25,368 nucleotides of DNA. Source: Candidatus Doudnabacteria bacterium (GTDB lineage: Bacteria; Patescibacteriota; Doudnabacteria; UBA920). The position numbers were made by a program, and so were the translations under genes. The first letter of the stretch is position 1. Each line of letters begins with the position of its first letter. The stretch is from the NCBI GenBank assembly GCA_023245895.1, contig JAHFJJ010000001.1, positions 71,621 through 96,988 on the forward strand, read 5' to 3'. Shown here piece by piece: positions 2,484 to 25,368 of the stretch. A model generated the notes under the pieces. That model had not been told where the DNA came from, ran no database searches, and saw nothing but the letters and a program-made list of their open reading frames with translations.

Positions 2484-2837
2484 TCACTTAAAGTCTACTC
2501 TATATTCTACCCCCCAAATGTTTAAACCGAATTTTTTGTAAAATTTTTGCAGTTCCGGCTTGGAATTCCTGCTGGTGGCAATTAATTTATAACAATTGCG
2601 CTTTTTGGCTTCGGCAACAGCTTGCTTTACGAGTTTGCTGCCCAAACCCTTGCTGCGGAACCGTGCGTCCACAAAAACATCTTCCAAAAGACCAAAGGGC
2701 CGTTTGTGCAAGTCATTGTTTATTACATACAAAAAAGCTCGGCCTATTTCCTTGCCTTTTTCTTCAAAGGTAATTTTTATCCCGTATAGGTTTTTTTTGA
2801 CTGCCTTTTTAATCTTCATAAGATTTTTATGCGTCAT
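2484..2837 (-). CDS. GNAT family N-acetyltransferase
   Basis: 117 aa with the acetyl-CoA binding motif (RSKGLGSKLVKQAVAEAKKRNCYKL). Confidence 0.8.
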   Translation of the reverse strand: MTHKNLMKIKKAVKKNLYGIKITFEEKGKEIGRAFLYVINNDLHKRPFGLLEDVFVDARFRSKGLGSKLVKQAVAEAKKRNCYKLIATSRNSKPELQKFYKKFGLNIWGVEYRVDFK

Positions 2838-2948
2838 TCCGAGGCGGTAGCATCCGAGCCGAGGAATCCCCTTATATCCGATTATTCATCAGCATTAAAG
2901 GGCTCCTCCACTCCCCTTCGGATGCACTCAGGGGTCGGTCGGGATGAC
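2833..2948. repeat. GC-rich imperfect long hairpin filling the yvcK-like/GNAT intergenic region, with its outer stem overlapping the GNAT start codon
   Basis: The outer arms gtcattccgag (2833-2843) and ctcaggggtcggtcgggatgac (2927-2948) are complementary. The inner arms gcatccga (2851-2858) and tcggatgc (2916-2923) are complementary too. The element is GC-rich relative to its flanks and shares cttcgg(c)gatg with the element at 21304-21331. Confidence 0.4.
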
Positions 2949-2950
2949 AC

Positions 2951-3919
2951 TTAGATTAAACCCCAAATTAATTTTGCCAATTTGTCCGAGTCATGGCGCA
3001 AAAAACTGCGCTTTAATTTGTCGCCGGCTTTCTTTTTTATTACTCCGTCAGACAATAAATCTTCGGCAATAGCCTCAACTTTGGTTTGGGCCAAGGCCTG
3101 AATGTCAGCTTCCACAAACTTTGCTTTTTCCGCTGAATACTTTTTCAAAATATCAGCTCCCGGTTTTTTGTTGTTTGCTAAAACAAGGTCTATTCTGCCA
3201 TTAAGGTATTTCTCCAAGGTCTTAACAAAATCAGAAGCCTTAAAACCATCTGTCTGGCCGAACTTGGTCATAATATTAGTGACAAGGATTTTTTTGGCTG
3301 GTGATTTATTTACCGCTTCGGCCACGCCTTTGACCAAAAGGCTGGGTAAAACGCTGGTAAACAAATCGCCCGGCCCAAAAATTATGGCATCGGCAGAATG
3401 TAGTGCCTTAAGAACTTTTGGATTGGCCGGCAAATTTGGTTTTAATCTTAAGTCTTTAATCTTTAATCTTGTGCGAGGTTCGTCTATATTATGTTCGCCA
3501 ATTACTTTTTTGCCGTTTTCTAAAAGAGCCATCAGAGTTGTAGGTTTCAATGTTACCGGCAAAACAGCCCCGCGGACATTAAGCAATTTGCCTGCCGCTT
3601 CCAGCGCCTGCTCGGGGTCGCCGGTAATTTTTTCCAGCGCGGCTAAAATTATGTTTCCCGCGGTGTGGCCTTCAAGCGAACCGGCAGTAAACCTGTAGGC
3701 AAAAAGCTGCTTGTAAATTTCATCGGTATAAGAAAGGCCAATTAAGCACTGCCGGTAGTCGCCGGGCGGTATAATGCCAAGTTCATACTTTAACCTGCCG
3801 CCGCTGCCGCCGTCGTCCGCGGTGGAAGCAATTACACTATTATTGGACGGATACTTCCTTAACCCCGACAGCAGGGTAAGCGTTCCCGTTCCCCCGCCGA
3901 TTATTACAATATTTTTCAT
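2951..3919 (-). CDS. YvcK/GlmR (UPF0052, CofD-like) family protein
   Basis: The N-terminal KNIVIIGGGTGTLTLLSGL and DDGGSGGRL motifs are typical of the YvcK/CofD family. The six-frame ORF extends to 3952 (TTG), but the ATG at 3919 just before the GGGTG motif is the more likely start. Confidence 0.8.
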   Translation of the reverse strand: MKNIVIIGGGTGTLTLLSGLRKYPSNNSVIASTADDGGSGGRLKYELGIIPPGDYRQCLIGLSYTDEIYKQLFAYRFTAGSLEGHTAGNIILAALEKITGDPEQALEAAGKLLNVRGAVLPVTLKPTTLMALLENGKKVIGEHNIDEPRTRLKIKDLRLKPNLPANPKVLKALHSADAIIFGPGDLFTSVLPSLLVKGVAEAVNKSPAKKILVTNIMTKFGQTDGFKASDFVKTLEKYLNGRIDLVLANNKKPGADILKKYSAEKAKFVEADIQALAQTKVEAIAEDLLSDGVIKKKAGDKLKRSFLRHDSDKLAKLIWGLI

Positions 3920-3947
3920 ATGTAGTGTTCTCAAATAAACAAATTTG

Positions 3948-4025
3948 GACAAATATACAAATCTTAATTATTTCCACAAATATACACAACCGACATTTGT
4001 ATATTTGTGTTGATTTGTATATTCG
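3948..4025. promoter_or_regulatory. cluster of four copies of the CAAATATACA half-site (two direct, two inverted): candidate operator/promoter for the yvcK-like operon
   Basis: Direct copies acaaatatacaa (3949-3960) and acaaatatacaca (3977-3989). Inverted copies tttgtatatttgtg (3996-4009) and tttgtatattcg (4014-4025). On the minus strand the cluster contains an extended -10-like TGTGTATATT. Confidence 0.35.
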
Positions 4026-4031
4026 CGATTA

Positions 4032-5315
4032 CTACTTAATTATTGCCATTTCCTTGCCCACCTCTTCAAAAGCCTTAACCGTACTGTCCATTTGCTCTTT
4101 GGTATGCGCTGATGATATTTGCACGCGAATCCTGGCCTTGCCCTTTGGCACTACAGGATAAGTGAACCCGCGGACGTAAATGCCTTTTTCAAAAAGCGCG
4201 CGGGCCATATTTGCCGCCAATTTTTCTTCAAACAACATCACGGGCGTAATCGCATGCTTACCGTCCCCTCCAAGTGTAAAGCCCAGCTTTTCCATTTCGC
4301 CCCTAAAATATTTGGTATTTTCTTCCAGCTGATTTCTATACTGCGCAAACTTGCTGTCAAAATTCTGTAATACATATAGGGCTGTGGCAGTAATCATAGG
4401 GGGCAAAGCATTGGAGAATAGTGTTGTACGAGAACGCTGATGGAGCACCTGGATTATTTCCTTCCTTCCGGCCGTAAAGCCTCCGCCCGCGCCGCCAAGG
4501 GCTTTTCCAAAAGTTGAAGTTAAAATATCTATCCTATCCATAACTCCGGCCTGTTCAATACTGCCACGGCCGTTCTTTCCCAGCACGCCGCTTGCATGGC
4601 TGTCGTCCACCATAACCAAAGCGCCGTACTTGTCGGCAAGGTCGCAAATTTCTTTGAGCTTGGCAGTAATGCCATCCATAGAAAACACGCCGTCTGTTGC
4701 AATCAATATCCGACGGGGCTTATATTTGCTCCCCTCTCCCCCCTTGTCCGCCATAGCTTTAGCGTCGGCGGATGGGAGAGGGGCCGGGGGTGAGGGTTTC
4801 TCTGGCCTCGATGTCGCCTCCTTTAACTGCCTTTCCAAGTCCCCCATATCCGAATTTTTAAACCTAAACCTTTCTGCCTTGCAAAGCCTAACGCCATCTA
4901 TAATAGAAGCATGATTCAACTCATCAGAAAAAATCGCATCCCCTTCCTTTAAAATAGTTTCAAACAAACCAGTGTTTGCGTCGAAACACGATGTATAACA
5001 AATGGCGTCTTCCTGCCCAAAAAACTTGGCAATTTCTTTTTCCAAATCTTTGTGCACAGTAAGCGTGCCGCAAATAAAACGTACGCTACCAGTACCATAC
5101 CCATATTTATCCAAAGCCTCTTTCGCGGCTCGGGTTAAATCATCGGATGATGCCAAACCTAGGTAGTTGTTGGCACAAAAGTTCAAAAGTGTCTTGTCGC
5201 CGACTTTAATTTCCGTCCCCTGTTTGCCTTCAATAACCCCTTCTTCTTTCCAGGTCCCTGCGTCCTTTATTTCTTTTAGTTCATCTTCAAATTGTTTTTG
5301 ATAGTTTGCGTACAT
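4032..5315 (-). CDS. kbl: 2-amino-3-ketobutyrate CoA ligase (glycine C-acetyltransferase)
   Basis: 427 aa. It aligns end to end with E. coli Kbl (NFCANNYLGL, VRFICGT, LIATDGVFSMDG, TFGKALGGAGGG, ARIRVQISSAHT). It carries a roughly 32-aa low-complexity insertion (RPEKPSPPAPLPSADAKAMADKGGEGSKYKP) that E. coli lacks. Confidence 0.92.
   Translation of the reverse strand: MYANYQKQFEDELKEIKDAGTWKEEGVIEGKQGTEIKVGDKTLLNFCANNYLGLASSDDLTRAAKEALDKYGYGTGSVRFICGTLTVHKDLEKEIAKFFGQEDAICYTSCFDANTGLFETILKEGDAIFSDELNHASIIDGVRLCKAERFRFKNSDMGDLERQLKEATSRPEKPSPPAPLPSADAKAMADKGGEGSKYKPRRILIATDGVFSMDGITAKLKEICDLADKYGALVMVDDSHASGVLGKNGRGSIEQAGVMDRIDILTSTFGKALGGAGGGFTAGRKEIIQVLHQRSRTTLFSNALPPMITATALYVLQNFDSKFAQYRNQLEENTKYFRGEMEKLGFTLGGDGKHAITPVMLFEEKLAANMARALFEKGIYVRGFTYPVVPKGKARIRVQISSAHTKEQMDSTVKAFEEVGKEMAIIK
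4729..4796. repeat. nested GC-rich palindromic element inserted in-frame in kbl
   Basis: The outer inverted repeat cccctctccc (4731-4740) / gggagagggg (4774-4783) is perfect. The inner pair tccgcc (4747-4752) / ggcgga (4767-4772) encloses the 14-nt loop atagctttagcgtc. The element coincides exactly with the extra peptide segment of Kbl. Confidence 0.55.
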
Positions 5316-5959: not shown

Positions 5960-7219
5960 TTAAAATTGTATTAAAAACTTAGGGTGCTTTGCCATCATTT
6001 CCTCAAACCTTTCCTTAGTATACTCTTCTATAGGCAAAATTGTGTCTTGGCCTCTGTCTAAAATTACGTTGAATAATTTTTCCTGGACGCCGTTTTTCGT
6101 GTTTTCCATTAAAGAGCGGGTTGTTTCCCATGTCTGCCAAATTTGCCGGCCAATGACAGCGTGGAAAGTAAAACCGTTGACAATAAGGCGGTTAAAATCT
6201 TCAAACACAAAATCTCCCTGCTTAATCCCAAAAAGAACAACTTCCCCTCCCCTGCGCGTGGCATACAGGCAATTATTTACAGAGGAATTAAAACCGGCCA
6301 TTTCAAAACTAATGTCCACGCCCACGCCGTTGGTAATTTTTTTAATTTCGTCGGTGAGGGATGTGTCATGGATGTAGGGCAGGGCCTTGCCCTGCTTGTT
6401 GGGCAGGCCGGGGGCCTGCACTACATTATACAACGGGATGACATAATCTATTCCCAACTTCTTCGCCATATCCTGCGTAACCGGATTCGGGTCCACTCCT
6501 ATTATAGAGGAAGCGCCCATGCCTTTTAAAACAATGGTTAAAAACATGCCGATTGGGCCTAACCCAAATATGGCGACAGATTTTCCTTTAACATCCACTT
6601 TGCTTGCCGCGTGGACCGCGTTGCCAAACGGTTCCTGCATGGCCGCGACTTCGGGACGGATTTTGGAAGTGTCGGTCTTCCAGACAATATGGCTTGGAAC
6701 TTTTGCAAATTCCGCGAACCCGCCGTCATGGGAAATGCCTAATATCTTTTCATTGGTGCAGACTTCTTTTTGCCCACGCAAACACTGGTAGCACTTATTG
6801 CAAACCACGTGGGACTCGCAAGCCGCGAAGTCCCCGGGCTTTAAATTTTTTACTGCTGATCCGACTTTAATAATTTCGCCAAAAAATTCGTGGCCAATTA
6901 TGCGGTATGTTTTACTTGCTGAAACTGCGAGTGCGGCCGAAGCAGTCCCGTCTTGTTTCAAGATTGCTTCGCCTCCTGCACTCCTCGCAATTTCATCATC
7001 TTTATCTATGCTCCCCAAAATGACATCCCTAAAAGCCTGCCTGTTCCAAATGCCGCGGTCAGTCCCGCAAATGCCGGCGTAGTGGACTTTCATAATTACA
7101 TAATTGGCGTCACCAGGATTATTTTTTTCATCCAAAACCGGCTCGGGAATATTTACCAATTCAAACCCGTGCGATGTTTCCCAATCATATTTAGATTTAT
7201 CAAACACCAATGCTTTCAT
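5960..7219 (-). CDS. tdh: Zn-dependent medium-chain dehydrogenase, L-threonine 3-dehydrogenase-like
   Basis: 419 aa, with an MKAL start. It has the catalytic-Zn motif GICGTD and GHEFFGEI, the structural-Zn motif CESHVVCNKCYQC...C, the GLGPIG NAD motif and EPFGNAVHA. It is adjacent to kbl, as in tdh-kbl operons. It carries two insertions of roughly 35 aa and roughly 15 aa relative to E. coli Tdh. Confidence 0.72.
   Translation of the reverse strand: MKALVFDKSKYDWETSHGFELVNIPEPVLDEKNNPGDANYVIMKVHYAGICGTDRGIWNRQAFRDVILGSIDKDDEIARSAGGEAILKQDGTASAALAVSASKTYRIIGHEFFGEIIKVGSAVKNLKPGDFAACESHVVCNKCYQCLRGQKEVCTNEKILGISHDGGFAEFAKVPSHIVWKTDTSKIRPEVAAMQEPFGNAVHAASKVDVKGKSVAIFGLGPIGMFLTIVLKGMGASSIIGVDPNPVTQDMAKKLGIDYVIPLYNVVQAPGLPNKQGKALPYIHDTSLTDEIKKITNGVGVDISFEMAGFNSSVNNCLYATRRGGEVVLFGIKQGDFVFEDFNRLIVNGFTFHAVIGRQIWQTWETTRSLMENTKNGVQEKLFNVILDRGQDTILPIEEYTKERFEEMMAKHPKFLIQF
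6373..6425. repeat. nested GC-rich palindromic element inserted in-frame in the tdh-like gene
   Basis: The outer inverted repeat is tgtagggcagg / cctgcactaca. It encloses two 7-bp stem hairpins (gcagggc-ctt-gccctgc and gcaggcc-ggg-ggcctgc). It encodes VQAPGLPNKQGKALPY, which is absent from E. coli Tdh. Confidence 0.5.
6926..6989. repeat. second nested GC-rich palindromic element inserted in-frame in the tdh-like gene
   Basis: The outer pair is tgcgagtgc / gcactcctcgca and the inner pair is ggccgaagcag / ttgcttcgcc. The central palindrome is cttgtttcaag. The element encodes part of the roughly 35-aa insertion between the CGTD and GHE motifs. Confidence 0.5.
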
Positions 7220-17691: not shown

Positions 17692-18126
17692 ATGAAACAA
17701 ATAAAAATTTTGATGGTGGACGAAAATGAAATTATGCGGTTTTACTTCCGCGACTCTTTCTGGCTGCATAGCGAACGGGACGAGTATGAATTGAGGTTTG
17801 CCAGTGATTTTGTCCAGGCACAGCAGATATTGCGGGAACCGGAAACATTTTTTGACATTATATTCCTGGATTTAGTTTTGCATATTACCCACAAAAACCG
17901 CTTGGTTCTGGACCCGGAAGCGGGCCTAAAGCTAATTGCCCAAATCCGCTCCATGCCTAAATTTAAAAATACCAAAATAGTAGTATTTTCTTCCAAGCAA
18001 TATTTCCATTTGTGGAAAAAAGCCAAAAAGCTGGGCGCTAACTTTTTCCTTAAAAGCGAAGAATACCTGCCCCGTTACCTGGTAAAATGGGTAGAAAAAA
18101 TCTTTAAAGAGAAATCCGCGCAATGA
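17692..18126 (+). CDS. stand-alone CheY-like receiver-domain protein (single-domain response regulator)
   Basis: 144 aa with the receiver signature positions: an acidic pair (VDEN), the phospho-acceptor Asp (IIFLDLVL), S (VVFSS) and K (FFLKS). It has no output domain. Its stop overlaps the ATPase start (ATGA). Confidence 0.75.
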   Translation: MKQIKILMVDENEIMRFYFRDSFWLHSERDEYELRFASDFVQAQQILREPETFFDIIFLDLVLHITHKNRLVLDPEAGLKLIAQIRSMPKFKNTKIVVFSSKQYFHLWKKAKKLGANFFLKSEEYLPRYLVKWVEKIFKEKSAQ

Positions 18127-19433
18127 ACACAATAATAGAATTAAAGCACGTCAATTTTTGGTACGACCGCGGCAAACCCACGGAAATGCAGGCTTTGCAC
18201 GACATTAATTTACAAATTGGCCAGGGAGAATATGTGGCTTTTTTCGGCCCTTCCGGCAGCGGCAAAACCACCCTGCTGTATTTGCTTTCAGGAACGGAAA
18301 TGTCCCAGGAAGGCGAAGTTATGGTCAACGGCAAAGACATTAGCAAACTGTCCAAAAGAGAAATGGCCATTTACCGGCAAATCGGGGTGGGCATGGTTTT
18401 CCAGCAGTTCAACCTTATTCCCAATTTAACCATACTGGAGAATGTCGGCTTGCCCATGGCTTTTTTAGGCGTTGGCGAAGACAAAAGAATAAAAGAAGCC
18501 AAGCTGCTGCTGGAACGGCTTAACCTGTCTGCCCTTGCCAAACGTTTTCCATATGAACTTTCCGGCGGACAGCAACAGAGAGTCGGCATAGCGCGCGCGC
18601 TGGCCAACAATGCGCCGATTATTGTCGCCGATGAGCCTATTGGCAACCTGGATTCCACCAACGCCAACAACGTGCTGGATTTTTTAAAGGAACTTTGTGA
18701 AAAGGACGGCAAAACTGTGGTTATGGTTACCCACGAAGCCTGGAGCTTAAGAGACGCCAAAAAAATCTTTTACCTGAAAGACGGCGTGGTGGAAAAAGTT
18801 GAAACCAACCACGCCAAACCGGCAACGCAAATCCTGGCGGAACAGCTATATAAACAAACAGCTCCCAAGCGGGCGCAGGAGTCCAAAGAACGGGCGGTGG
18901 CCAGCACCCTGGCCAATGTGCTTTTTCGCGGTTTTTCGGCTGAAGAAAACATGCGTTTCAGCGACTTTCTAACACAGCGCTTAACGGGACAAGTGGACCA
19001 GGTACAATTCCTAGAATTGCTCTATAAGCCTTTCCGCGAGGGCGGCGGAGGTTTGTGGAAAAAACGGGCGCTGGAAACCTCGCGCTACGTTGAAGGGATT
19101 ATCCAGGAGCATATGGACGTGGAAGGAATATGCCTGGAGCTGGAAAAAAATCCAACGGCTCCCCTGCTTCACGAAATTGGCAGTTTAATGGAATGGCTTT
19201 TAGACAGGAATAAAATCCGGCTGGATCAGCTACAGGAAAGCCGCTTCCGCCAAGTTACCACAGAAGTCCTCCGCAACGCTATTAAGCTGGAAGCCTTTAA
19301 AGAAGCGCTGTATTTGCCAAAGTCAAAACTGGGCGTGGGGCTGTCGCATAGGACAACTGAAAGAATTTATGAAAAATTTAAACTTGCTTTGGGTAATTTT
19401 GAACTTGAACCGCTCTCGCCTGAAAAAGCCTAA
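18123..19433 (+). CDS. MacB/LolD-type ABC transporter ATP-binding protein with a roughly 200-aa C-terminal extension of unknown function
   Basis: It has Walker A (GPSGSGKTT), the ABC signature (LSGGQQQRVGIARAL), Walker B (IIVADEPIGNLD) and an H-loop (VTHE). Residues from about 230 to 436 have no recognisable motif. Confidence 0.88.
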   Translation: MNTIIELKHVNFWYDRGKPTEMQALHDINLQIGQGEYVAFFGPSGSGKTTLLYLLSGTEMSQEGEVMVNGKDISKLSKREMAIYRQIGVGMVFQQFNLIPNLTILENVGLPMAFLGVGEDKRIKEAKLLLERLNLSALAKRFPYELSGGQQQRVGIARALANNAPIIVADEPIGNLDSTNANNVLDFLKELCEKDGKTVVMVTHEAWSLRDAKKIFYLKDGVVEKVETNHAKPATQILAEQLYKQTAPKRAQESKERAVASTLANVLFRGFSAEENMRFSDFLTQRLTGQVDQVQFLELLYKPFREGGGGLWKKRALETSRYVEGIIQEHMDVEGICLELEKNPTAPLLHEIGSLMEWLLDRNKIRLDQLQESRFRQVTTEVLRNAIKLEAFKEALYLPKSKLGVGLSHRTTERIYEKFKLALGNFELEPLSPEKA

Positions 19434-19437
19434 TAAT

Positions 19438-19598
19438 GGGTCTTCTGCCGAATGTCATTTTGACTGCAATTTCAAAATTTCGGCCATTCGACCCAAAAAA
19501 TTTATCCGCTTAACTAAAGTTAAACATCAAAATTTATTTGTGCCGACTGTCTCGAAATTTTGAAATTTCGTTACAAAAGCACATTCGGCAGAAGACCC
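19438..19598. repeat. 161-bp near-perfect inverted-repeat element (MITE-like or structured RNA) filling the ATPase-permease intergenic region
   Basis: The terminal 18-bp inverted repeat gggtcttctgccgaatgt (19438-19455) / acattcggcagaagaccc (19581-19598) is perfect. The inner 15-bp pair is aatttcaaaatttcg / cgaaattttgaaatt. The tip hairpin is ttaac-taaa-gttaa. The element ends 5 nt before the permease ATG. Confidence 0.6.
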
Positions 19599-19603
19599 AT
19601 ACA

Positions 19604-20809
19604 ATGAACAACCACCTAAGCCCTTTTGACCTTATAAAACTCTCCACCAGAGTCTTTTTCGTCAAGCCAACACGAACGCTTTTGACTATTTTAGGGACTT
19701 CTGTCGGCATTAGCGCGGTGGTATTTTTAGTTTCCCTGGGCTACGGCTTCCAGTACCTGCTTTTAGGCAAACTGGTTACAACCGAAGATTCTTTAATTAC
19801 GCTGGCGGCTTCCTACCCCAGTGAAAGCGGAGCGGTAATTTATCCCAAAACAATAGAGGAAATGGGCAAGCTGCCCGGGGCGTCGGAAACCAGCAGCATG
19901 GCTGAATTTTCGGGCGAAATTGACTACGAAAAATTAAGCGGGCTAATCTTGGTTAGAGAAGTAGAACCCAGCTACTTTCGGCTTTCCGGCTTTAACCCGG
20001 ACATTGGACAGGCGCCATCGGAAAAAAAGCCGGGCTTAGTGCTTACTAACCAGGCTTTGCGCCTGCTTAACTTAGCAGATGACCAAAATATCCTCGGCAA
20101 ACAAGCCGGTATAAAAGTTTATTATCAAAGCCAGGACCAAAGCCAGCCCAGCGAAGCAAACGCCTCTTCGCCCCTGCCCATTGTCGGCATAATCACCGAC
20201 GAGAACGAGCCTCCGGTAGTCTACGTTCTGGCTTCTTCCATTTCACAAGCGCCGCCTTTTTTTAAGGAGCTCTTACTTAAGGCTGACAAAATCGACAATG
20301 TAGAACCCCTTAGGGAAAAATTAAGCGACAAAGGATTTTTAATTTCTGCCAAGCTTGACTTGGTCACACAGGCCAGAAAAATTTTAAACGCGATTACCAT
20401 TGTGCTGGCTGTGTTCGGGATTACCGCCCTGGTGGTTTCCGCCATTGGCATGTTTAACACTATGATCGTGGGCTTTTTGGAAAGGATTTATGAGGTCGGG
20501 GTCATGAAGTCTTTAGGCGCCACCGATAGCGACGTGCGGAACCTATTTTTGATGGAATCCCTGCTCATGGGCCTTTGCGGCGGCATAGCGGGCGTAGCCA
20601 TTGGCATTGGGGCGGGCAAACTGCTAAATTTTGGCCTCAATGTGCTTGCCTCCCGCCTAGGAGGCAAAGCTTTAGAGCTCTTTATTACCCCTTGGTGGTT
20701 TATAGGTTTAATCTTGGCAACCTCGGCTTCCATTGGCCTGATTGCCGGTTTTTGGCCGGCCCACCGCGCTTCGACGCTTTCTCCCAAAGAAGCATTTTTG
20801 AGGAAATAA
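19604..20809 (+). CDS. ABC transporter permease, MacB/FtsX family
   Basis: It has an N-terminal TM (LLTILGTSVGISAVVFLVSLGYGF), a large periplasmic domain, and a C-terminal FtsX-type four-helix region (MKSLGATDSDVRNLFLMESLLMGLCGGIAGV...). The ATG at 19604 is preferred over the ORF-track start at 19538, which lies inside the inverted-repeat element. Confidence 0.85.
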   Translation: MNNHLSPFDLIKLSTRVFFVKPTRTLLTILGTSVGISAVVFLVSLGYGFQYLLLGKLVTTEDSLITLAASYPSESGAVIYPKTIEEMGKLPGASETSSMAEFSGEIDYEKLSGLILVREVEPSYFRLSGFNPDIGQAPSEKKPGLVLTNQALRLLNLADDQNILGKQAGIKVYYQSQDQSQPSEANASSPLPIVGIITDENEPPVVYVLASSISQAPPFFKELLLKADKIDNVEPLREKLSDKGFLISAKLDLVTQARKILNAITIVLAVFGITALVVSAIGMFNTMIVGFLERIYEVGVMKSLGATDSDVRNLFLMESLLMGLCGGIAGVAIGIGAGKLLNFGLNVLASRLGGKALELFITPWWFIGLILATSASIGLIAGFWPAHRASTLSPKEAFLRK

Positions 20810-21303: not shown

Positions 21304-21331
21304 CTATCCGCCTTCGCTAAAGCTTCGGCGG
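21304..21331. repeat. copy of the short palindromic core element (atccgcc-N14-ggcggat with loop cgctaaagct) in the 23S-5S spacer
   Basis: It has a 7-bp perfect stem atccgcc/ggcggat and a 14-nt loop ttcgctaaagcttc. The kbl insertion has the same stem and loop length and shares the 10-nt loop core cgctaaagct, in the opposite orientation. Confidence 0.45.
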
Positions 21332-21717
21332 ATGACTCTCTACTAAATAAATTATAGTGAGTCACAAATTGCTAGTCAATAGAAATAGAATTAAAATTTT
21401 CGGTTGATTAGTATTGCTCGGCTGAACACATTACTGTGCTTACACCTGCAACCTATAAAACGAGTGGTCAGTGATTAGTGTTTAGTGATTAGTATTGCTA
21501 CTATCCACTGCCCACTGCACACTATCCACTAGTTATGATACGGGGTAGTCTTCCCCGAACCTTTATTATGTATTGCTACATAAAACGAAACCTAGTTTCT
21601 TGGACGGCTTCACGCTTATATGCATTCAGCGCTTATCCTAACTAGACCTAGCTACCCCGCCATGCCGCGGACGCGACAACGGGTACACCAGAGGTCTATG
21701 CATCCCGGTCCTCTCGT

Positions 21718-22569
21718 CACATATTCTTCTGTCACCAGAAGTGCAGACTATATCTTCATCCTATCTTATACCTTAGGCTCCTGGGCCATAGTATTTTTTT
21801 ATGATAGGTGTCGGCGTATTATAGAAATAGTAGAAAGTATAAAGTTGAAAGTTTAAAGTAACTGCAATTGCAGTCCTTTTCACTTTCTACTTTTAACTTT
21901 TAACTACCTTCCATCTCCTCTTTCGAGTCAGTCGTTACGGGGTCAAACCTAAAATCTTAAATAATTCAAGTCCGGTTTTCTTTTTCCGAGTTGCGTAGTT
22001 ATTATTTTGAATTATTGTTATACAGCTTATAATTTTCCTGAGTTCAGATTGCGTAAAATTAGCAATCTTTTTCCCTTCCAGAATTCCGGCTGCTTTATAC
22101 AAAGCCGCAGCTTGTTGCTTCTTAAAACGTATAAATGGAATTAAATCTTTAAGAATGTTTTTAATTTGAGTCACCCCGTTTATACGAAGTTCGCTCATTC
22201 CGTCATTTCTGCGGGATAAGTACCCAATGCCTAAAACTTTCTTAATCCAGAAAAGTTCTGCTTCATGGCGGCTATCCTGATAAAAACAGATAGTGCACAT
22301 AAAACGAACTTTTTTCTTTCCATCTTTGCGCTTTTTGATTTGCAACATTAAGCTGCCGTCTCCGTCTAAAAAGCCGGCAATATAAGCTAAATCAATTTTA
22401 GATCGACTTCCCACGGTATTGTCTTAATATTCTTGGTCCTCAAGTAAATTGTACCATAACTGAAGAACCGTTACAATTATGGTTATCAACGGATGCAAAA
22501 TATATTAAGATTTCACCGTTATTAGCCGAATTTTCAAGGCAGATTACTCTGCCAAGTAGCAAACCCTTT
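21718..22569 (-). other. intron (group I-like, 852 nt) inserted in the 23S sarcin-ricin loop (E. coli U2656/A2657 equivalent)
   Basis: The 5' exon ends ...GCGCAUCCCUAGU (22570). The 3' exon starts ACGAGAGGACCGGGAU (21717). Joined, they restore the universal SRL CCUAGUACGAGAGGACC closed by the AUCCC/GGGAU stem. The intron starts with A after an exonic U and ends in G. Confidence 0.7.
21935..22414 (-). CDS. LAGLIDADG homing endonuclease (single-motif) encoded in the SRL intron
   Basis: It has the LAYIAGFLDGDGS motif near its N-terminus. It is 159 aa with a GTG start, and lies entirely within the intron. Confidence 0.85.
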   Translation of the reverse strand: MGSRSKIDLAYIAGFLDGDGSLMLQIKKRKDGKKKVRFMCTICFYQDSRHEAELFWIKKVLGIGYLSRRNDGMSELRINGVTQIKNILKDLIPFIRFKKQQAAALYKAAGILEGKKIANFTQSELRKIISCITIIQNNNYATRKKKTGLELFKILGLTP

Positions 22570-22699
22570 ACTAGGGATGCGCCCAATCAAGTTTCGAACA
22601 CCCACAGCAGATAAGGACCAAACTGTCTCACGACGTTTTGAACCCAGCTCGCGTACCACTTTAATATGCGAACAGCATAACCCTTGGGAGCTTCTTCAC

Positions 22700-22738
<39 letters not shown>

Positions 22739-23308
22739 TCTCGTCGATGTGGACTCTTGGAGAGGATCAGCCTGTTATCCCTAGAGTAACTTTTATCCGT
22801 TGGGCTTTGCGTCTTCCACTCGAACGCATCGGATCACTAACTTCCACTTTCGTGCCTGCGCGGGTCGCCGCCCTTGCAGTCAAGCATGCTTATGCGTTTG
22901 CACTATCAGCATGATTTCCATCCATGCCTAGCATACCTTAATAAACGCCTCCGTTACCATTTAGGAGGCAACCGCCCCAGTTAAACTACCCACGAGCCAC
23001 TGTCCCAAAGTAGGTTAGACTTTGGTTAGAATTAATATTTTTACAGAGTGGTATTTCACCTTTTGCCTCCATTTGAGCTGGCGCCCAAACTTCAAAGGCT
23101 CCCACCTAGGCTAAACAATAAAAGCATTAATTCAATGACACGCTATAGTAAAGCTTCATAGGGTCTTTCCGTCTTGCTGCGGGTAGACGGCATCTTTACC
23201 GCCACTGTAAGTTCATCGGAATGTTCGTTAAGACAGTTCTCTGCTCGTTATGCCATTCGTGCGGGTCGCAACTTACGCGACAAGGAATTTCGCTACCATA
23301 GGACAGTT

Positions 23309-24044
23309 CATAATGTTAGCTTCATGTTTCCATGAAGTTCAGACTATATCATTCCATCAATTGGATGGATTCGGCGTTTAGTCGTTGAGGGTTTTTACTA
23401 AATGATTCTTTAAAATTTGTTAAATTATGCTTTCGAGTTCTACCTTTTCCTTCATTTAAGTCCTCACGAAGTTTTACTATTTCTAGCAACCCTTCCTGAT
23501 TTAAATGTTGGCTTGCAAAAACTAATCTTGCAATTTTAGAGAATAACGAATAGTTTCTTTTTTTACTAGCGGACAAGAAACCGAACCGGTCAAAGAAAGG
23601 AATTATTTTTTCTTTGAGTGCTGTATGATTTTGGACAATATATTGATGCACGCCATCTTTCCTATGGTCAATGCGACCACAGCCTAAATGATGCTTCAAC
23701 AAAGCAAGTACGGTAATGTCTTTTTGAGCAACATTAAACGTTAATATTACTTGCCATAATACTTTACTGTCGTTTCGTTTACGAAGGGAAACATTAAAGC
23801 TTCCTTCTCCGTCTACAAAACCTGCAAAGTAATTTCCAATTTCAACAGGAATTTGCTTTAACCAATTTTGATCCATAAAGTTTCCTTCTGAATCTTTTAG
23901 TAAATCTTCCCTGCGGATTGACTGTATCTTGTAAATTTTTACTGTCAATTTAATGACGAGTATTACAAGCTTTAAGCACATCAAAGTCCTTTGTGTGCAC
24001 AGTTATTCCCGCAAATAGCCAAATTTTATAACTACAACATGTTC
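23309..24044 (-). other. group I-like intron (736 nt) in 23S helix 69 at the L1917-equivalent site
   Basis: The 5' exon ends ...GGCAGUAACUAU (U at 24045). The 3' exon starts AACUGUCCUAUGGUAGCGAAAUUCC (23308). Joined, they give the H69 loop UAACUAUAAC. The intron ends in G. The junction can slide by 3-4 nt because of the local repeat gaac...gaac. Confidence 0.65.
23349..23984 (-). CDS. LAGLIDADG homing endonuclease (single-motif) encoded in the L1917 intron
   Basis: It has the NYFAGFVDGEGSF motif. The likely true start is the internal Met at 23876 (MDQNWLKQIPVEIGNYFAGF...). The longer N-terminal extension probably reads through intron core sequence. Confidence 0.85.
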   Translation of the reverse strand: MMCLKLVILVIKLTVKIYKIQSIRREDLLKDSEGNFMDQNWLKQIPVEIGNYFAGFVDGEGSFNVSLRKRNDSKVLWQVILTFNVAQKDITVLALLKHHLGCGRIDHRKDGVHQYIVQNHTALKEKIIPFFDRFGFLSASKKRNYSLFSKIARLVFASQHLNQEGLLEIVKLREDLNEGKGRTRKHNLTNFKESFSKNPQRLNAESIQLME

Positions 24045-24814
24045 ATAGTTACTGCCGGCGTTCATCAGGGCTTGGCCGATCGGCTTGCGCCAACCGGTTT
24101 AACCTTCTGACACTGGCCAGGCATCAGCCCGTATACATCAGCTTGCGCTTTAGCACGGACCTAAGTTTTTGGTAAACAGTCGGAGGAGATCTTTCGCTGC
24201 GGCCCTGTACCATTCATTCGCTTACGCGAATTCAGGTGCAGGGCAAGGTATATACCGAAGGTACACCTGCTTTTTTGCCGAGTTCCTTAACGAACATTGG
24301 TCCGGACGCCTTGGGATTCTCTCCCCATCCACCTGTGTCGGTTTACGGTACGAGCACTTTATAACATGACTTCGACGCTTTTCTTGACACCTTGATTCAC
24401 ACTAATCTCCGTTGCCAGATTTTTTTATGCTTTCGAGATTACAATCGCATCAACCATCTCTTGCGAGGTAAGCTGATGTAATATAGGAACTCCGGATTTA
24501 CCTAAAGTTCCACCCTACGAGCACAACAACGCCAATAGTCAGATGACGCTAATGTTATCATGATGCGTCCCGCCTAAGATAATTATAAAGCGGTTATGGA
24601 ATATCAACCATATTTTCCATCGGGTGAACCCCTTGGGGCCCACTCTTAGGATCGACTAACCCAGGGACGACGATCGTTGCCCTGGAAACCTTGGATATTC
24701 GGCGAAGAGGATTCTCACCTCTATATATATTACTTATTCCAACATTCTTACTTGTACACTGTCCACGGCCGCTTACGCATACCGCTTCAGCCTGTGTACA
24801 ACACTCCTCTACCA

Positions 24815-24927
24815 CTTATGCGAAGCATAAGAACAATTAACTTTTAACAATTAACAATTGACCGGCTGCAGACTGCAGTAGTTAATCGTTAATCGTTAAT
24901 TGTTACCAGTTTTTATGCTTCGCATAA
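24815..24927 (-). repeat. 113-nt hairpin expansion segment in 23S (replacing the short helix after the GTPase-associated centre), built of tandem 7-10-nt repeats
   Basis: The base palindromes are cttatgcgaagcataag and tttatgcttcgcataaa. Tandem aacaattaac copies pair with tandem gttaatc copies around the central palindrome ctgcagactgcag. E. coli has only GCGGCAGCGACGCUUAUGCGUUGUUGGGUAG at this position. Confidence 0.5.
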
Positions 24928-25010
24928 ATCCACGTCTTCGGCACCTAGCTTAGCCCCTATATATTGTCGGCGCAGGATCGCTTGACCAGTGAGCTGTTAC
25001 GCTTTCTTTA

Positions 25011-25047
<37 letters not shown>

Positions 25048-25368
25048 GGGCAATCCCACATCCTTTGCACTATAGCTAGGATTTGGGGGCCTTAGACGGT
25101 GGTGTGGATTCTTCTCCATTTGTCTCGTGAAGCTTAGACCTCACGGACTGACTGCCAATTTCTTGACCTTTAGAATTCGGAGTTTGGTTGGAGCCTACCG
25201 CTTGCGCAGCAGGTTTCCATTCAGTGCTCTACCTCTAAAGGGAACAATTGACGCTAGCCCTAAAGCTATTTCGAGGAGAACCAGCTATCACCCGGTTCGA
25301 TTGGAATTTCTCCCCTACGCACAGCTCATCCCCTATTTTTGCAGCAATAGTGGGTTCGGACCTCCCGT

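Follow-up and report, generated by a model that had tools for sequence, protein, structure and literature searches.

CGTC-tagged repetitive extragenic palindromes (REPs) are built of a CGTC, TGTC or CCTC tag, a stem of 8-9 bp beginning with A-T, a loop of 4-5 nucleotides (nt) and a 3-nt tail with the consensus CCA (PMC3733652). They occur mostly as inverted dimers with spacers of 20-100 nt, include in-frame intragenic copies and were described as having no associated transposase (Di Nocera et al. 2013, PMC3733652). The preferred sites of REPs are downstream of open reading frames (ORFs), and the superfamily includes Neisseria dRS3, Rickettsia RPE-4 and RPE-6, and alphaproteobacterial CGTC-1 to CGTC-4 (PMC3733652). 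It has been reported that the dRS3-containing NTS is the single-stranded-DNA hairpin site of SsnA, a single-domain GIY-YIG nuclease of 94 amino acids (aa) (Chenal et al. 2025, PMC11893778). Binding by SsnA depends critically on a C after the stem, and cutting on the three bases preceding the stem; the identity of the loop does not matter, extensions of the loop are tolerated, and neither duplex DNA nor RNA is acted on (PMC11893778). Ssn enzymes cut one strand just upstream of the stem, the ssn genes, whose products are nucleases of the cd10448 type, are typically flanked by the motifs, and in Neisseria these enzymes limit the integration of incoming motif-bearing DNA (PMC11893778). Here, an element of 118 nt between a yvcK/CofD-like gene and a GNAT acetyltransferase gene was analysed in a stretch of 25,368 nt from a Candidatus Doudnabacteria bacterium (contig JAHFJJ010000001.1, positions 71,621 to 96,988; referred to as the window, with positions counted from its first letter). 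Most likely it is a member, without a gene, of a dispersed palindromic repeat family of the kind of the CGTC-tagged REPs and Ssn-related motifs (SRMs), and not a switch of the GNAT gene, whose translation would start at 2819. The sequence available for the source genome amounts to 28.8 kb, the window plus a 3.4-kb extension.

The ends of the element were set at YGTCA...TGACR by flank statistics, and two other assemblies, L001 and L208, contain the element in identical form (comparison loci are denoted by L numbers). Its parts are:

2832 to 2949, no strand assigned: whole repeat, two inverted stem-loop units with their YGTC tags outward and a central stem-loop between them; termini and internal boxes match at least 131 copies, with flank statistics
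2901 to 2949, minus strand: left unit, aligned to L016, L005, L056 and the closest copies L118, L142 and L196, with box statistics
2949-2946, minus strand: left-unit tag TGTC
2945-2941, minus strand: left-unit stem 5' half ATCCC
2940-2935, minus strand: left-unit GACCGA
2934-2914, minus strand: left-unit variable mini-hairpin CCCCT..AGGGG
2913-2907, minus strand: left-unit GAGTGGA
2906-2902, minus strand: left-unit decayed stem 3' half GGAGC (GGGAT in the family)
2901, minus strand: left-unit C after the stem
2869 to 2900, minus strand: central variable stem-loop (CUUUAAUGCUGAUGAAUAAUCGGAUAUAAGGG), differing in sequence and length between copies; its pair B12-B'2 covaries (UA 61, CG 11; boxes are defined below)
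2832 to 2868, plus strand: right unit, intact, read directly from the sequence
2832-2835, plus strand: right-unit tag CGTC
2836-2840 / 2863-2867, plus strand: right-unit stem ATTCC / GGAAT with adjoining tandem G.A
2868, plus strand: right-unit conserved C after the stem

The window copy is a gene-less, partly decayed member of the family. Copies of the family were retrieved from metagenome contigs with a two-arm pattern that required both ends, GTCATYCCGACCGA-N(65-95)-CTCGGRATGAC. At least 131 distinct full copies were found, in contigs with a G+C content of 0.33-0.71, and they share the termini YGTCATYCCGACCGA...CTCGGRATGACR. None of the 121 metagenome loci that carry them encodes YvcK or GNAT. 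One high-GC host is a Reyranellaceae-like alphaproteobacterium, the neighbouring acyl-CoA dehydrogenase being 94-95% identical to proteins of that family, and others are Patescibacteria. Among relatives, homologous elements lie at the same junction (L016), just after yvcK (L056) or elsewhere (L005), and the copies closest to that of the window among the matches listed (L118, L142 and L196, 76-79% identity) are at other loci. Half-elements of the window's sub-lineage occur in Doudnabacteria-type genomes (L007, L018), singletons were seen in L007, L018 and L026, and there are tandem arrays and nested partial duplications, such as five tandem copies of about 107 nt each in L189 (983-1592). A further copy lies in frame in a leucyl-tRNA synthetase gene (L161, about 4397-4512, in an ORF of 1210 aa; ...RHSDRPQGAEESR...RDPSTS...ARDD...). 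A resemblance to the spurious peptides 'VIPAKAGIQ / EILRFAQNDK' may also exist. Relative to the flanking genes 24 copies are co-oriented and 15 opposite, and a crude ORF caller placed 37 copies 'inside ORFs' in high-GC contigs. A blastn search of plasmids of cultured bacteria with a canonical copy gave chance matches only, and a pattern scan of a viral collection gave one match in 2.9 million contigs. The earlier note had suggested kinship with a palindromic element family through the string cttcgg(cg)gatg. This was right in kind, but the family is not the one it named: the palindromes at 4747-4774 and 21306-21334 share only that short motif with the element.

The order of parts is the same in all copies. 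The first half runs from box A, (Y)GTCATYCCGACCGA, through a variable mini-hairpin to box B, GAGYGGAGGRATC; a variable central stem-loop follows, and the second half runs from box B', GATYCCTCGRCTC, through a second variable mini-hairpin to box A', CTCGGRATGAC(R). Covariation lies inside each half. The Y in A pairs with the R in B (CG 60, TA 48, other 3) and the Y in B' with the R in A' (CG 69, TA 41, other 1), whereas A and A', which would be partners in one long hairpin, behave as independent (CG 33, TG 33, CA 27, TA 13). When pairs were counted over 81 distinct box-alignments, a four-way-junction model left 98.5% of cells paired, with CG 45/UA 33 (3 exceptions) and CG 50/UA 30 (1 exception) at the covarying positions; for the same columns the long-hairpin model gave CG 28/UG 22/UA 12/other 19 and GC 29/GU 17/AU 13/other 22. 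The conserved stems S1 and S3 both have the form TYCC/GGRA and continue with tandem G.A; the two ends are connected by an outer stem, YGTCA/TGACR, and the central stem starts at B12-B'2. A C follows the stem in 110 of 111 copies, and the base before GTC (T in 95 and C in 30 of 129) covaries with the base after GAC. These counts support, as the conserved object, two short stem-loops that are inverted and meet in a four-way junction; the single long hairpin was rejected as the conserved fold on covariation, though it is the minimum-energy fold. In the left stem G.U and C.A were seen once and twice, respectively, and G.U is no commoner than C.A in the covarying pairs. Such near-strict Watson-Crick pairing would fit, weakly, a structure used on both DNA strands over one used on a single RNA strand.

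The minus-strand RNA 2950-2831 is predicted to fold into one long imperfect hairpin of -53.5 kcal/mol, compared with -38.5 +/- 4.2 kcal/mol for 200 dinucleotide-preserving shuffles (z = -3.63, none of the 200 as good). The plus-strand RNA of the element folds more weakly (-43.5 kcal/mol, z = -1.74), and the minus strand gives -21.7 kcal/mol (z = -2.6) with DNA parameters. The outer arms on the minus strand are GUCAUCCCGACC (2948-2937) opposite CCUCGGAAUGAC (2844-2833), in which GUCAU/AUGAC and CCGA/UCGG flank a single C.A mismatch. The G+C content of the element is 0.53-0.55 in 100-nt windows and that of the whole window 0.44. The GC-rich hairpin of about 115 nt that the earlier note had claimed is therefore real, and so is the pairing of its 5' arm with a 3' arm containing an ATG. 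The long hairpin is both the thermodynamic optimum and the RNA fold to be expected of the decayed window copy.

A strong GC-rich stem directly after a stop codon might be a factor-independent terminator or attenuator that separates the transcription of yvcK and GNAT. However, no U-run follows the hairpin, a consensus scan found neither a terminator nor a promoter at the element, no promoter-like site for GNAT lies downstream of it, and relatives couple both genes. As the earlier note had already concluded, the hairpin is not an intrinsic terminator, and this explanation is extremely unlikely. The Rfam scan that the note had proposed gave, at curated thresholds over the whole window, only the 23S and 5S rRNAs and nothing at the element; for fifteen loci with canonical copies it gave only tRNAs, and no Rfam family corresponds to the repeat. 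In a permissive Rfam scan of 2600-3200, RT-2 appeared at 21.8 bits against a cut-off of 40, with pairs outside the hairpin, and was rejected.

The family is a variant of the CGTC-tagged REPs and Ssn-related motifs that is missed by the published motif definitions. With the CGTC-tagged REPs it shares the tag (in the window TGTC at 2949-2946 on the minus strand and CGTC at 2832-2835 on the plus strand), the A-T start of the stem, the inverted-dimer layout (all of the at least 131 retrieved copies, the pattern having required both ends), a location mostly after ORFs, in-frame copies, and hosts that include Alphaproteobacteria. It differs in having a stem of 4-5 Watson-Crick pairs followed by G.A/A.G mismatches instead of 8-9 bp, a loop of at least 12 nt, usually with a nested mini-hairpin, instead of 4-5 nt, and a host range that reaches Patescibacteria. 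The first base of the tail is the C mentioned above, the next bases vary (CTC, CCC, CTT), and canonical sister copies have CCAG. The same Patescibacteria-type loci also contain canonical copies, for example TGTCATTCCCGCGAAAGCGGGAATCCAG. Also, the statement of 2013 that no dedicated enzyme exists fails for this family, since ssn genes lie inside or beside some of its copies. With the SRMs, including the Neisseria NTS (CGTCATTCCCGCGMAVGCGGGAATCYRG), the family has in common a YGTC tag upstream of the stem, an AT(Y)CC...GG(R)AT stem, a C right after it, inverted unit pairs, and units flanking ssn genes (L106, L174, L179, L091 and L207). In contrast to the SRM stem of about 8 bp, its stem has 4-5 bp, and the loop of at least 12 nt carries conserved GACCGA/GAGYGGA (tandem G.A) and nested mini-hairpins. 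The right unit of the window copy has both sequence determinants reported as critical for SsnA, namely the GTC tag and the C that follows the stem. In Patescibacteria-type loci, 18 canonical sites match the published SRM pattern.

A combined motif and hidden Markov model search found small GIY-YIG ORFs beside family units in 5 of the 121 metagenome loci:

L106, ssn ORF 563-850 (locus region 520-989): a unit directly upstream and a full dimer 28 nt downstream
L174, ssn ORF 4601-4912 (locus region 3584-4912): left unit directly upstream, right units downstream
L179, ssn ORF 190-507 (locus region 12-714): between two dimers
L091, ssn ORF 151-381 (locus region 1-700): between left and right units
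L161, ssn ORF 1220-1612: a family copy about 2.8 kb away (4397-4512)

The proteins have 94-100 aa and match PF01541 only. In a comparison with the gonococcal SsnA orthologue the five gave 39-51% identity with E = 2e-18 to 4e-31, which surpasses the published criterion of E < 1e-10 (PMC11893778). No NCBIfam family scored above threshold for the GIY-YIG proteins, and a PDB search gave a weak UPF0213 match only. The gonococcal ssnA orthologue itself, located by tblastn, is an ORF of 94 aa embedded in 16 dRS3/NTS copies. Its source records, NZ_CP119140.1 and NZ_CP119142.1 (2.17 Mb), are filed as Neisseria gonorrhoeae plasmids and are evidently chromosomes. A Patescibacteria homologue, P0321 (L207 2920-3420, on a 78-kb contig of a metagenome-assembled genome), is flanked by a TGTCATTTCGAGCG...GAGTCGAGGAATCTAG unit and a decayed inverted unit, and L036 holds an ssn pseudogene. 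Versions with the gene between or beside inverted units have a layout like that of an insertion sequence (IS). In L174, a complete dimer without the gene lies 1 kb away, and its left unit and the one before ssn are nearly identical, which suggests, from the sequences compared, that gene-less dimers arise by loss of the ssn gene. All-against-all clustering of neighbouring proteins found no recurrent neighbour in more than five loci.

Other small GIY-YIG ORFs, in L011 (15741-16010) and L048 (17696-17947 and 16711-16977), belong to a UPF0213/YhbQ-like clade and match SsnA weakly. Palindromes of the form GCGAAGC...TAGCTTTAGCGAAG, similar to those at window positions 4747-4774 and 21306-21334, precede these ORFs and may form a second nuclease-repeat pairing with them.

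The terminal inverted repeats, the size of about 100 nt and the dispersed, tandem or nested copies would also be expected of a miniature inverted-repeat transposable element moved by a DDE-type transposase. However, no target-site duplication of any length was seen in 129 copies (3-8 nt tested; 2-nt matches were below chance), there was no recurrent transposase-like neighbour among 2,196 ORFs, the covariation internal to each half is not needed by a duplex inverted repeat, and the sole gene found inside the element encodes a GIY-YIG nuclease. Such an origin is hardly credible for this family. Closer likeness exists to the REPIN/GTAG-type REP doublets, which are likewise inverted short-hairpin doublets folding into a long hairpin, non-autonomous, without target-site duplications, and recognised as single-stranded DNA hairpins with a short unpaired tag. 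The family differs from them in its tag (YGTC, not GTAG) and in its gene, a GIY-YIG nuclease and not the Y1 HUH transposase of REPINs (RAYT, IS200/IS605-like); no RAYT-like neighbour was found among the same 2,196 ORFs.

The start of the GNAT gene bears directly on what the hairpin could do in the transcript. The genes and start codons are:

2951 to 3919, minus strand: yvcK/CofD-like gene, stop TAA at 2953-2951, start at M12 of the longest ORF; Pfam CofD, E = 1.9e-89
2835 to 2837, minus strand: fortuitous in-frame ATG in the end motif of the repeat (GGAATGACG), the start of the longest-ORF call of 117 aa
2817 to 2819, minus strand: most likely true GNAT start (MKIKKAVKK...), from orthologue alignment and the AT-rich leader gcataaaaatctt
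2484 to 2819, minus strand: GNAT acetyltransferase gene, 111 aa from the inferred start; Pfam Acetyltransf_1, E = 1e-13

YvcK homologues begin at residue 12 of the longest ORF, and the C-terminus is intact compared with relatives. The homologues also point to a Doudnabacteria-type member of the Patescibacteria as the source. The element is inserted 2 nt past the yvcK stop codon. For GNAT, the start aligns exactly with the window ATG at 2819-2817 in 28 of 42 orthologues and lies at most two codons away in the other 14; none of the 42 starts six codons upstream, at the position of 2837. The leader of 2819 fits the pattern of the window, AT-rich and without a Shine-Dalgarno sequence, whereas the 'leader' of 2837 does not. 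The terminal ATG is present in every family copy, and in L016 the same ATG reaches a stop after six codons. Judged from these alignments, GNAT translation most likely starts at 2819 and not at the ATG inside the repeat. The spacer to this start is 131 nt, of which the final 12 nt (2831-2820) lie outside the element. The hairpin therefore fills the whole intergenic region, as had been stated, only if the ORF starts at 2837. The lack of a Shine-Dalgarno sequence, also stated, is true and uninformative, the genes of the window generally having such AT-rich leaders.

The earlier note had preferred a translational gate, in which a thermometer- or riboswitch-like RNA hides the GNAT start and releases it on a signal. 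Such a gate would draw on the strong RNA hairpin and the in-frame ATG within its 3' arm, and known RNA thermometers (ROSE, fourU) have a similar stem near, and formally overlapping, an in-frame AUG upstream of a coding region. However, the start supported by orthologues lies outside the stem: ATG 2819 is 11 nt (2830-2820) past the stem base, whose last paired base is 2831, and 12 nt past the element end at 2832. A stem base this close, inside the 30S footprint, could still lower initiation, and it would be melted by any ribosome that terminates translation of yvcK, whose stop codon is 2 nt ahead of the stem. The comparative evidence is against a gate as well. No structure is conserved across relatives, of which about half have no real spacer and the rest mostly unrelated palindromes, and the same element stands at no fewer than 131 loci with other neighbours, apparently without strong strand bias (24 versus 15 by a crude ORF caller). 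Unlike a thermometer, the element is not conserved at orthologous loci, its sequestered AUG is not the homologous start, and a dispersed repeat of 118 nt with about -50 kcal/mol is far too stable for thermal melting. Neither an Rfam match at curated threshold nor a locus-specific, conserved unpaired core resembling a ligand pocket was seen. Both findings that the earlier note had named as refuting, no conserved structure in comparative data and a GNAT start downstream of the stem, were thus made here. Most likely the hairpin does not sequester the GNAT start codon, and the gate is a very unlikely explanation.

How the element came to this place can be read from relatives. In the closest relative available (77% YvcK identity; L002-L004), GNAT overlaps yvcK by 20 nt. 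The adjacency of yvcK and GNAT is kept in about 45 of the 84 loci compared; in roughly half of 44 junctions the genes overlap or are 1-16 nt apart, and about 21 of the 44 hold hairpin-forming spacers of 40-140 nt, mostly unrelated to each other. A comparison resembling an empty site is given by L060 (70% identity), with TAG-AACTCATCTTAAT-ATGGAAATTAAAAAA against TAA-GT[116 nt]GCATAAAAATCTT-ATGAAGATTAAAAAG in the window. Since relatives show an overlap or a short gap at this junction, the 118 nt at 2832-2949 are an insertion into a short spacer, and by this alignment the element sits in a former spacer of about 16 nt between two formerly coupled genes. The palindrome types at yvcK-GNAT junctions are drawn from several unrelated families. 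One of them, TTCACGGCCGTGAA (L007, L053), is also present in the source genome (L208 8321-8374 and 8922-9004). Between kbl and yvcK there is an AT-rich inverted repeat (3919-4038, 44-nt arms, 77% complementary, rich in ATTTGTATA), which resembles AT-rich palindromes at the yvcK-GNAT junctions of L011, L039, L045 and L048. The junction looks, from this comparison, like a permissive landing site.

Another role would be at the RNA level, with the hairpin stabilising yvcK mRNA against 3' exonucleases or setting the yvcK:GNAT ratio. RNA stabilisation and an influence on expression ratios have been described for REPs of E. coli. The element is co-transcribed within a long run of same-strand genes, its minus-strand RNA folds better than the plus strand, about half of the relatives' junctions hold some hairpin, and REPs favour sites downstream of ORFs (PMC3733652). 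However, the nearest relatives have no hairpin at the junction and the hairpins of the others are mostly unrelated, so that nothing is conserved; the Watson-Crick-only pairs of the family (G.U against C.A in the left stem, as counted above) fit use on two DNA strands; and SsnA is inactive on RNA (PMC11893778). A selected function of this type is unlikely, though somewhat less so than a gate.

The preferred reading of the element as a gene-less repeat copy leads to the following mechanism. A unit consists of an unpaired YGTC tag, a stem ATYCC/GGRAT with tandem G.A, a loop that tolerates nested mini-hairpins, and a C after the stem. An inverted pair of units can fold in two ways, into the four-way junction supported by covariation or into the one long hairpin of the thermodynamic optimum. 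The window element looks like a deletion derivative of an ssn-carrying element, and its intact right unit, on the plus strand, may be an Ssn substrate. With the tags outward and on opposite strands, cuts would fall 5' of each stem, at the two boundaries of the element, and spread could take place on single-stranded DNA by way of the hairpins, without duplication of the target site. At its present site the hairpin would be a passenger in the yvcK-GNAT transcript, with the possible effects of shielding the upstream mRNA and of reducing or uncoupling the translation of GNAT; under this model, it probably breaks the ancestral translational coupling of yvcK and GNAT as a by-product. Beyond the window copy, we tentatively propose that the GTCATYCCGACCGA...CTCGGRATGAC family is an undescribed and very widespread SRM variant, that its dimers derive from an IS-like [unit]-ssn-[inverted unit], and that Ssn spreads CGTC-type REPs; this wider proposal is possible but considerably less secure than the assignment of the window copy.

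Several points weigh against this reading. No ssn gene lies in the 28.8 kb of the source genome, and neither short-word blastn nor a tag search found a second family copy in the 25.4-kb window and its 3.4-kb extension, so that activity in the source genome is unproven. The published SRM pattern, HGTCWYN(0-2)YYVSBRHN(0-5)WNVSBRGN(0-2)RNCYNB, gave no match in the window and none in the 131 listed family copies, with 9 matches in 2.7 kb around gonococcal ssnA as positive control. The window copy no longer has the stem 3' half of its left unit, and the right unit alone forms, as DNA, a weak hairpin of -4.3 kcal/mol (z = 0.5). More generally, covariation supports stems of just 4-5 bp, and a unit by itself has little thermodynamic stability; for 107 of 111 copies the long hairpin is predicted to have the lowest energy, with an advantage of about 10 kcal/mol in the window copy; and the covariation counts come from related sequences, not from independent events. 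Finally, family copies or close variants stand just after yvcK in L014 (+4 nt), L016 (+14) and L056 (+37 and +46). This is slightly above random placement and is not fully explained by the preferred reading, so that some locus-related role keeps a little weight. The copies at these three loci belong to different sub-lineages and have different insertion offsets, and their placement fits a permissive junction better than a conserved function, because about half of the relatives carry some palindrome there.

Other palindromes were observed in the window. The kbl gene (2-amino-3-ketobutyrate CoA ligase, ORF 4032-5315, minus strand) contains an in-frame insert of 30 aa (residues 171-200, PEKPSPPAPLPSADAKAMADKGGEGSKYKP, window 4716-4805), which is absent from the PDB homologue 3tqx and is encoded by a palindrome with a G+C content of 0.72. 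The core of this palindrome, TCCGCCATAGCTTTAGCGTCGGCGGATG, recurs with 82% identity in the 5S-23S rRNA spacer (21306-21334), and the insert resembles the in-frame palindromic inserts of RPE type in Rickettsia. Compared with PDB 2dfv, threonine dehydrogenase (ORF 5960-7219, minus strand) has two in-frame inserts, one of about 18 aa at 6380-6433, which is a GC-rich palindrome (LYNVVQAPGLPNKQGKAL), and one of about 40 aa at 6923-7042 (residues 60-99). A tag look-alike at 6442 was rejected as native coding sequence (DYVIP of Tdh). An inverted repeat at 19436-19600, with 27-nt arms that are 93% complementary and enclose 111 nt, is unrelated in sequence to the studied element; it takes up the whole interval from ORF 18123-19433 to ORF 19538-20809 and extends over the predicted start of the latter. 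The 23S rRNA gene (22523-25368, minus strand) matches over 2,846 nt for 2,161 model positions, which leaves about 685 nt of insertions. These include an inverted repeat with 47-nt arms (24816-24927), and an ORF of 211 aa inside the gene (23349-23984) may be an intron-encoded protein.

The locus itself is of modest interest, and the family somewhat more, given the copies that contain ssn. At the locus, a false regulatory lead is removed and the GNAT start is corrected to 2819, the six extra codons being repeat-derived. The same mis-call can recur wherever the repeat abuts a gene, because every copy ends in ...GGRATGAC. The family is abundant from low-GC Patescibacteria to high-GC Alphaproteobacteria metagenomes and is unseen by the published SRM pattern; surveys based on that pattern would thus under-count Ssn-type repeats. 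The ssn-containing copies offer a candidate for the enzyme behind CGTC-tagged REPs, together with enzyme-site pairs that can be tested in vitro. The small palindromic inserts, several of them in frame in enzymes, show that selfish palindromes are tolerated in reduced genomes of Patescibacteria in much the same way as in Rickettsia, which matters for gene and protein annotation. If the wider proposal is true, CGTC-type REPs owe their spread, at present or at least in the past, to Ssn GIY-YIG nucleases, by way of a single-stranded DNA intermediate that is a four-way junction or a hairpin, and with no duplication of the target. Patescibacteria, with their tiny genomes, are presumed to rely on DNA uptake, and the repeats would then mark DNA for cutting during uptake or recombination in these bacteria too.

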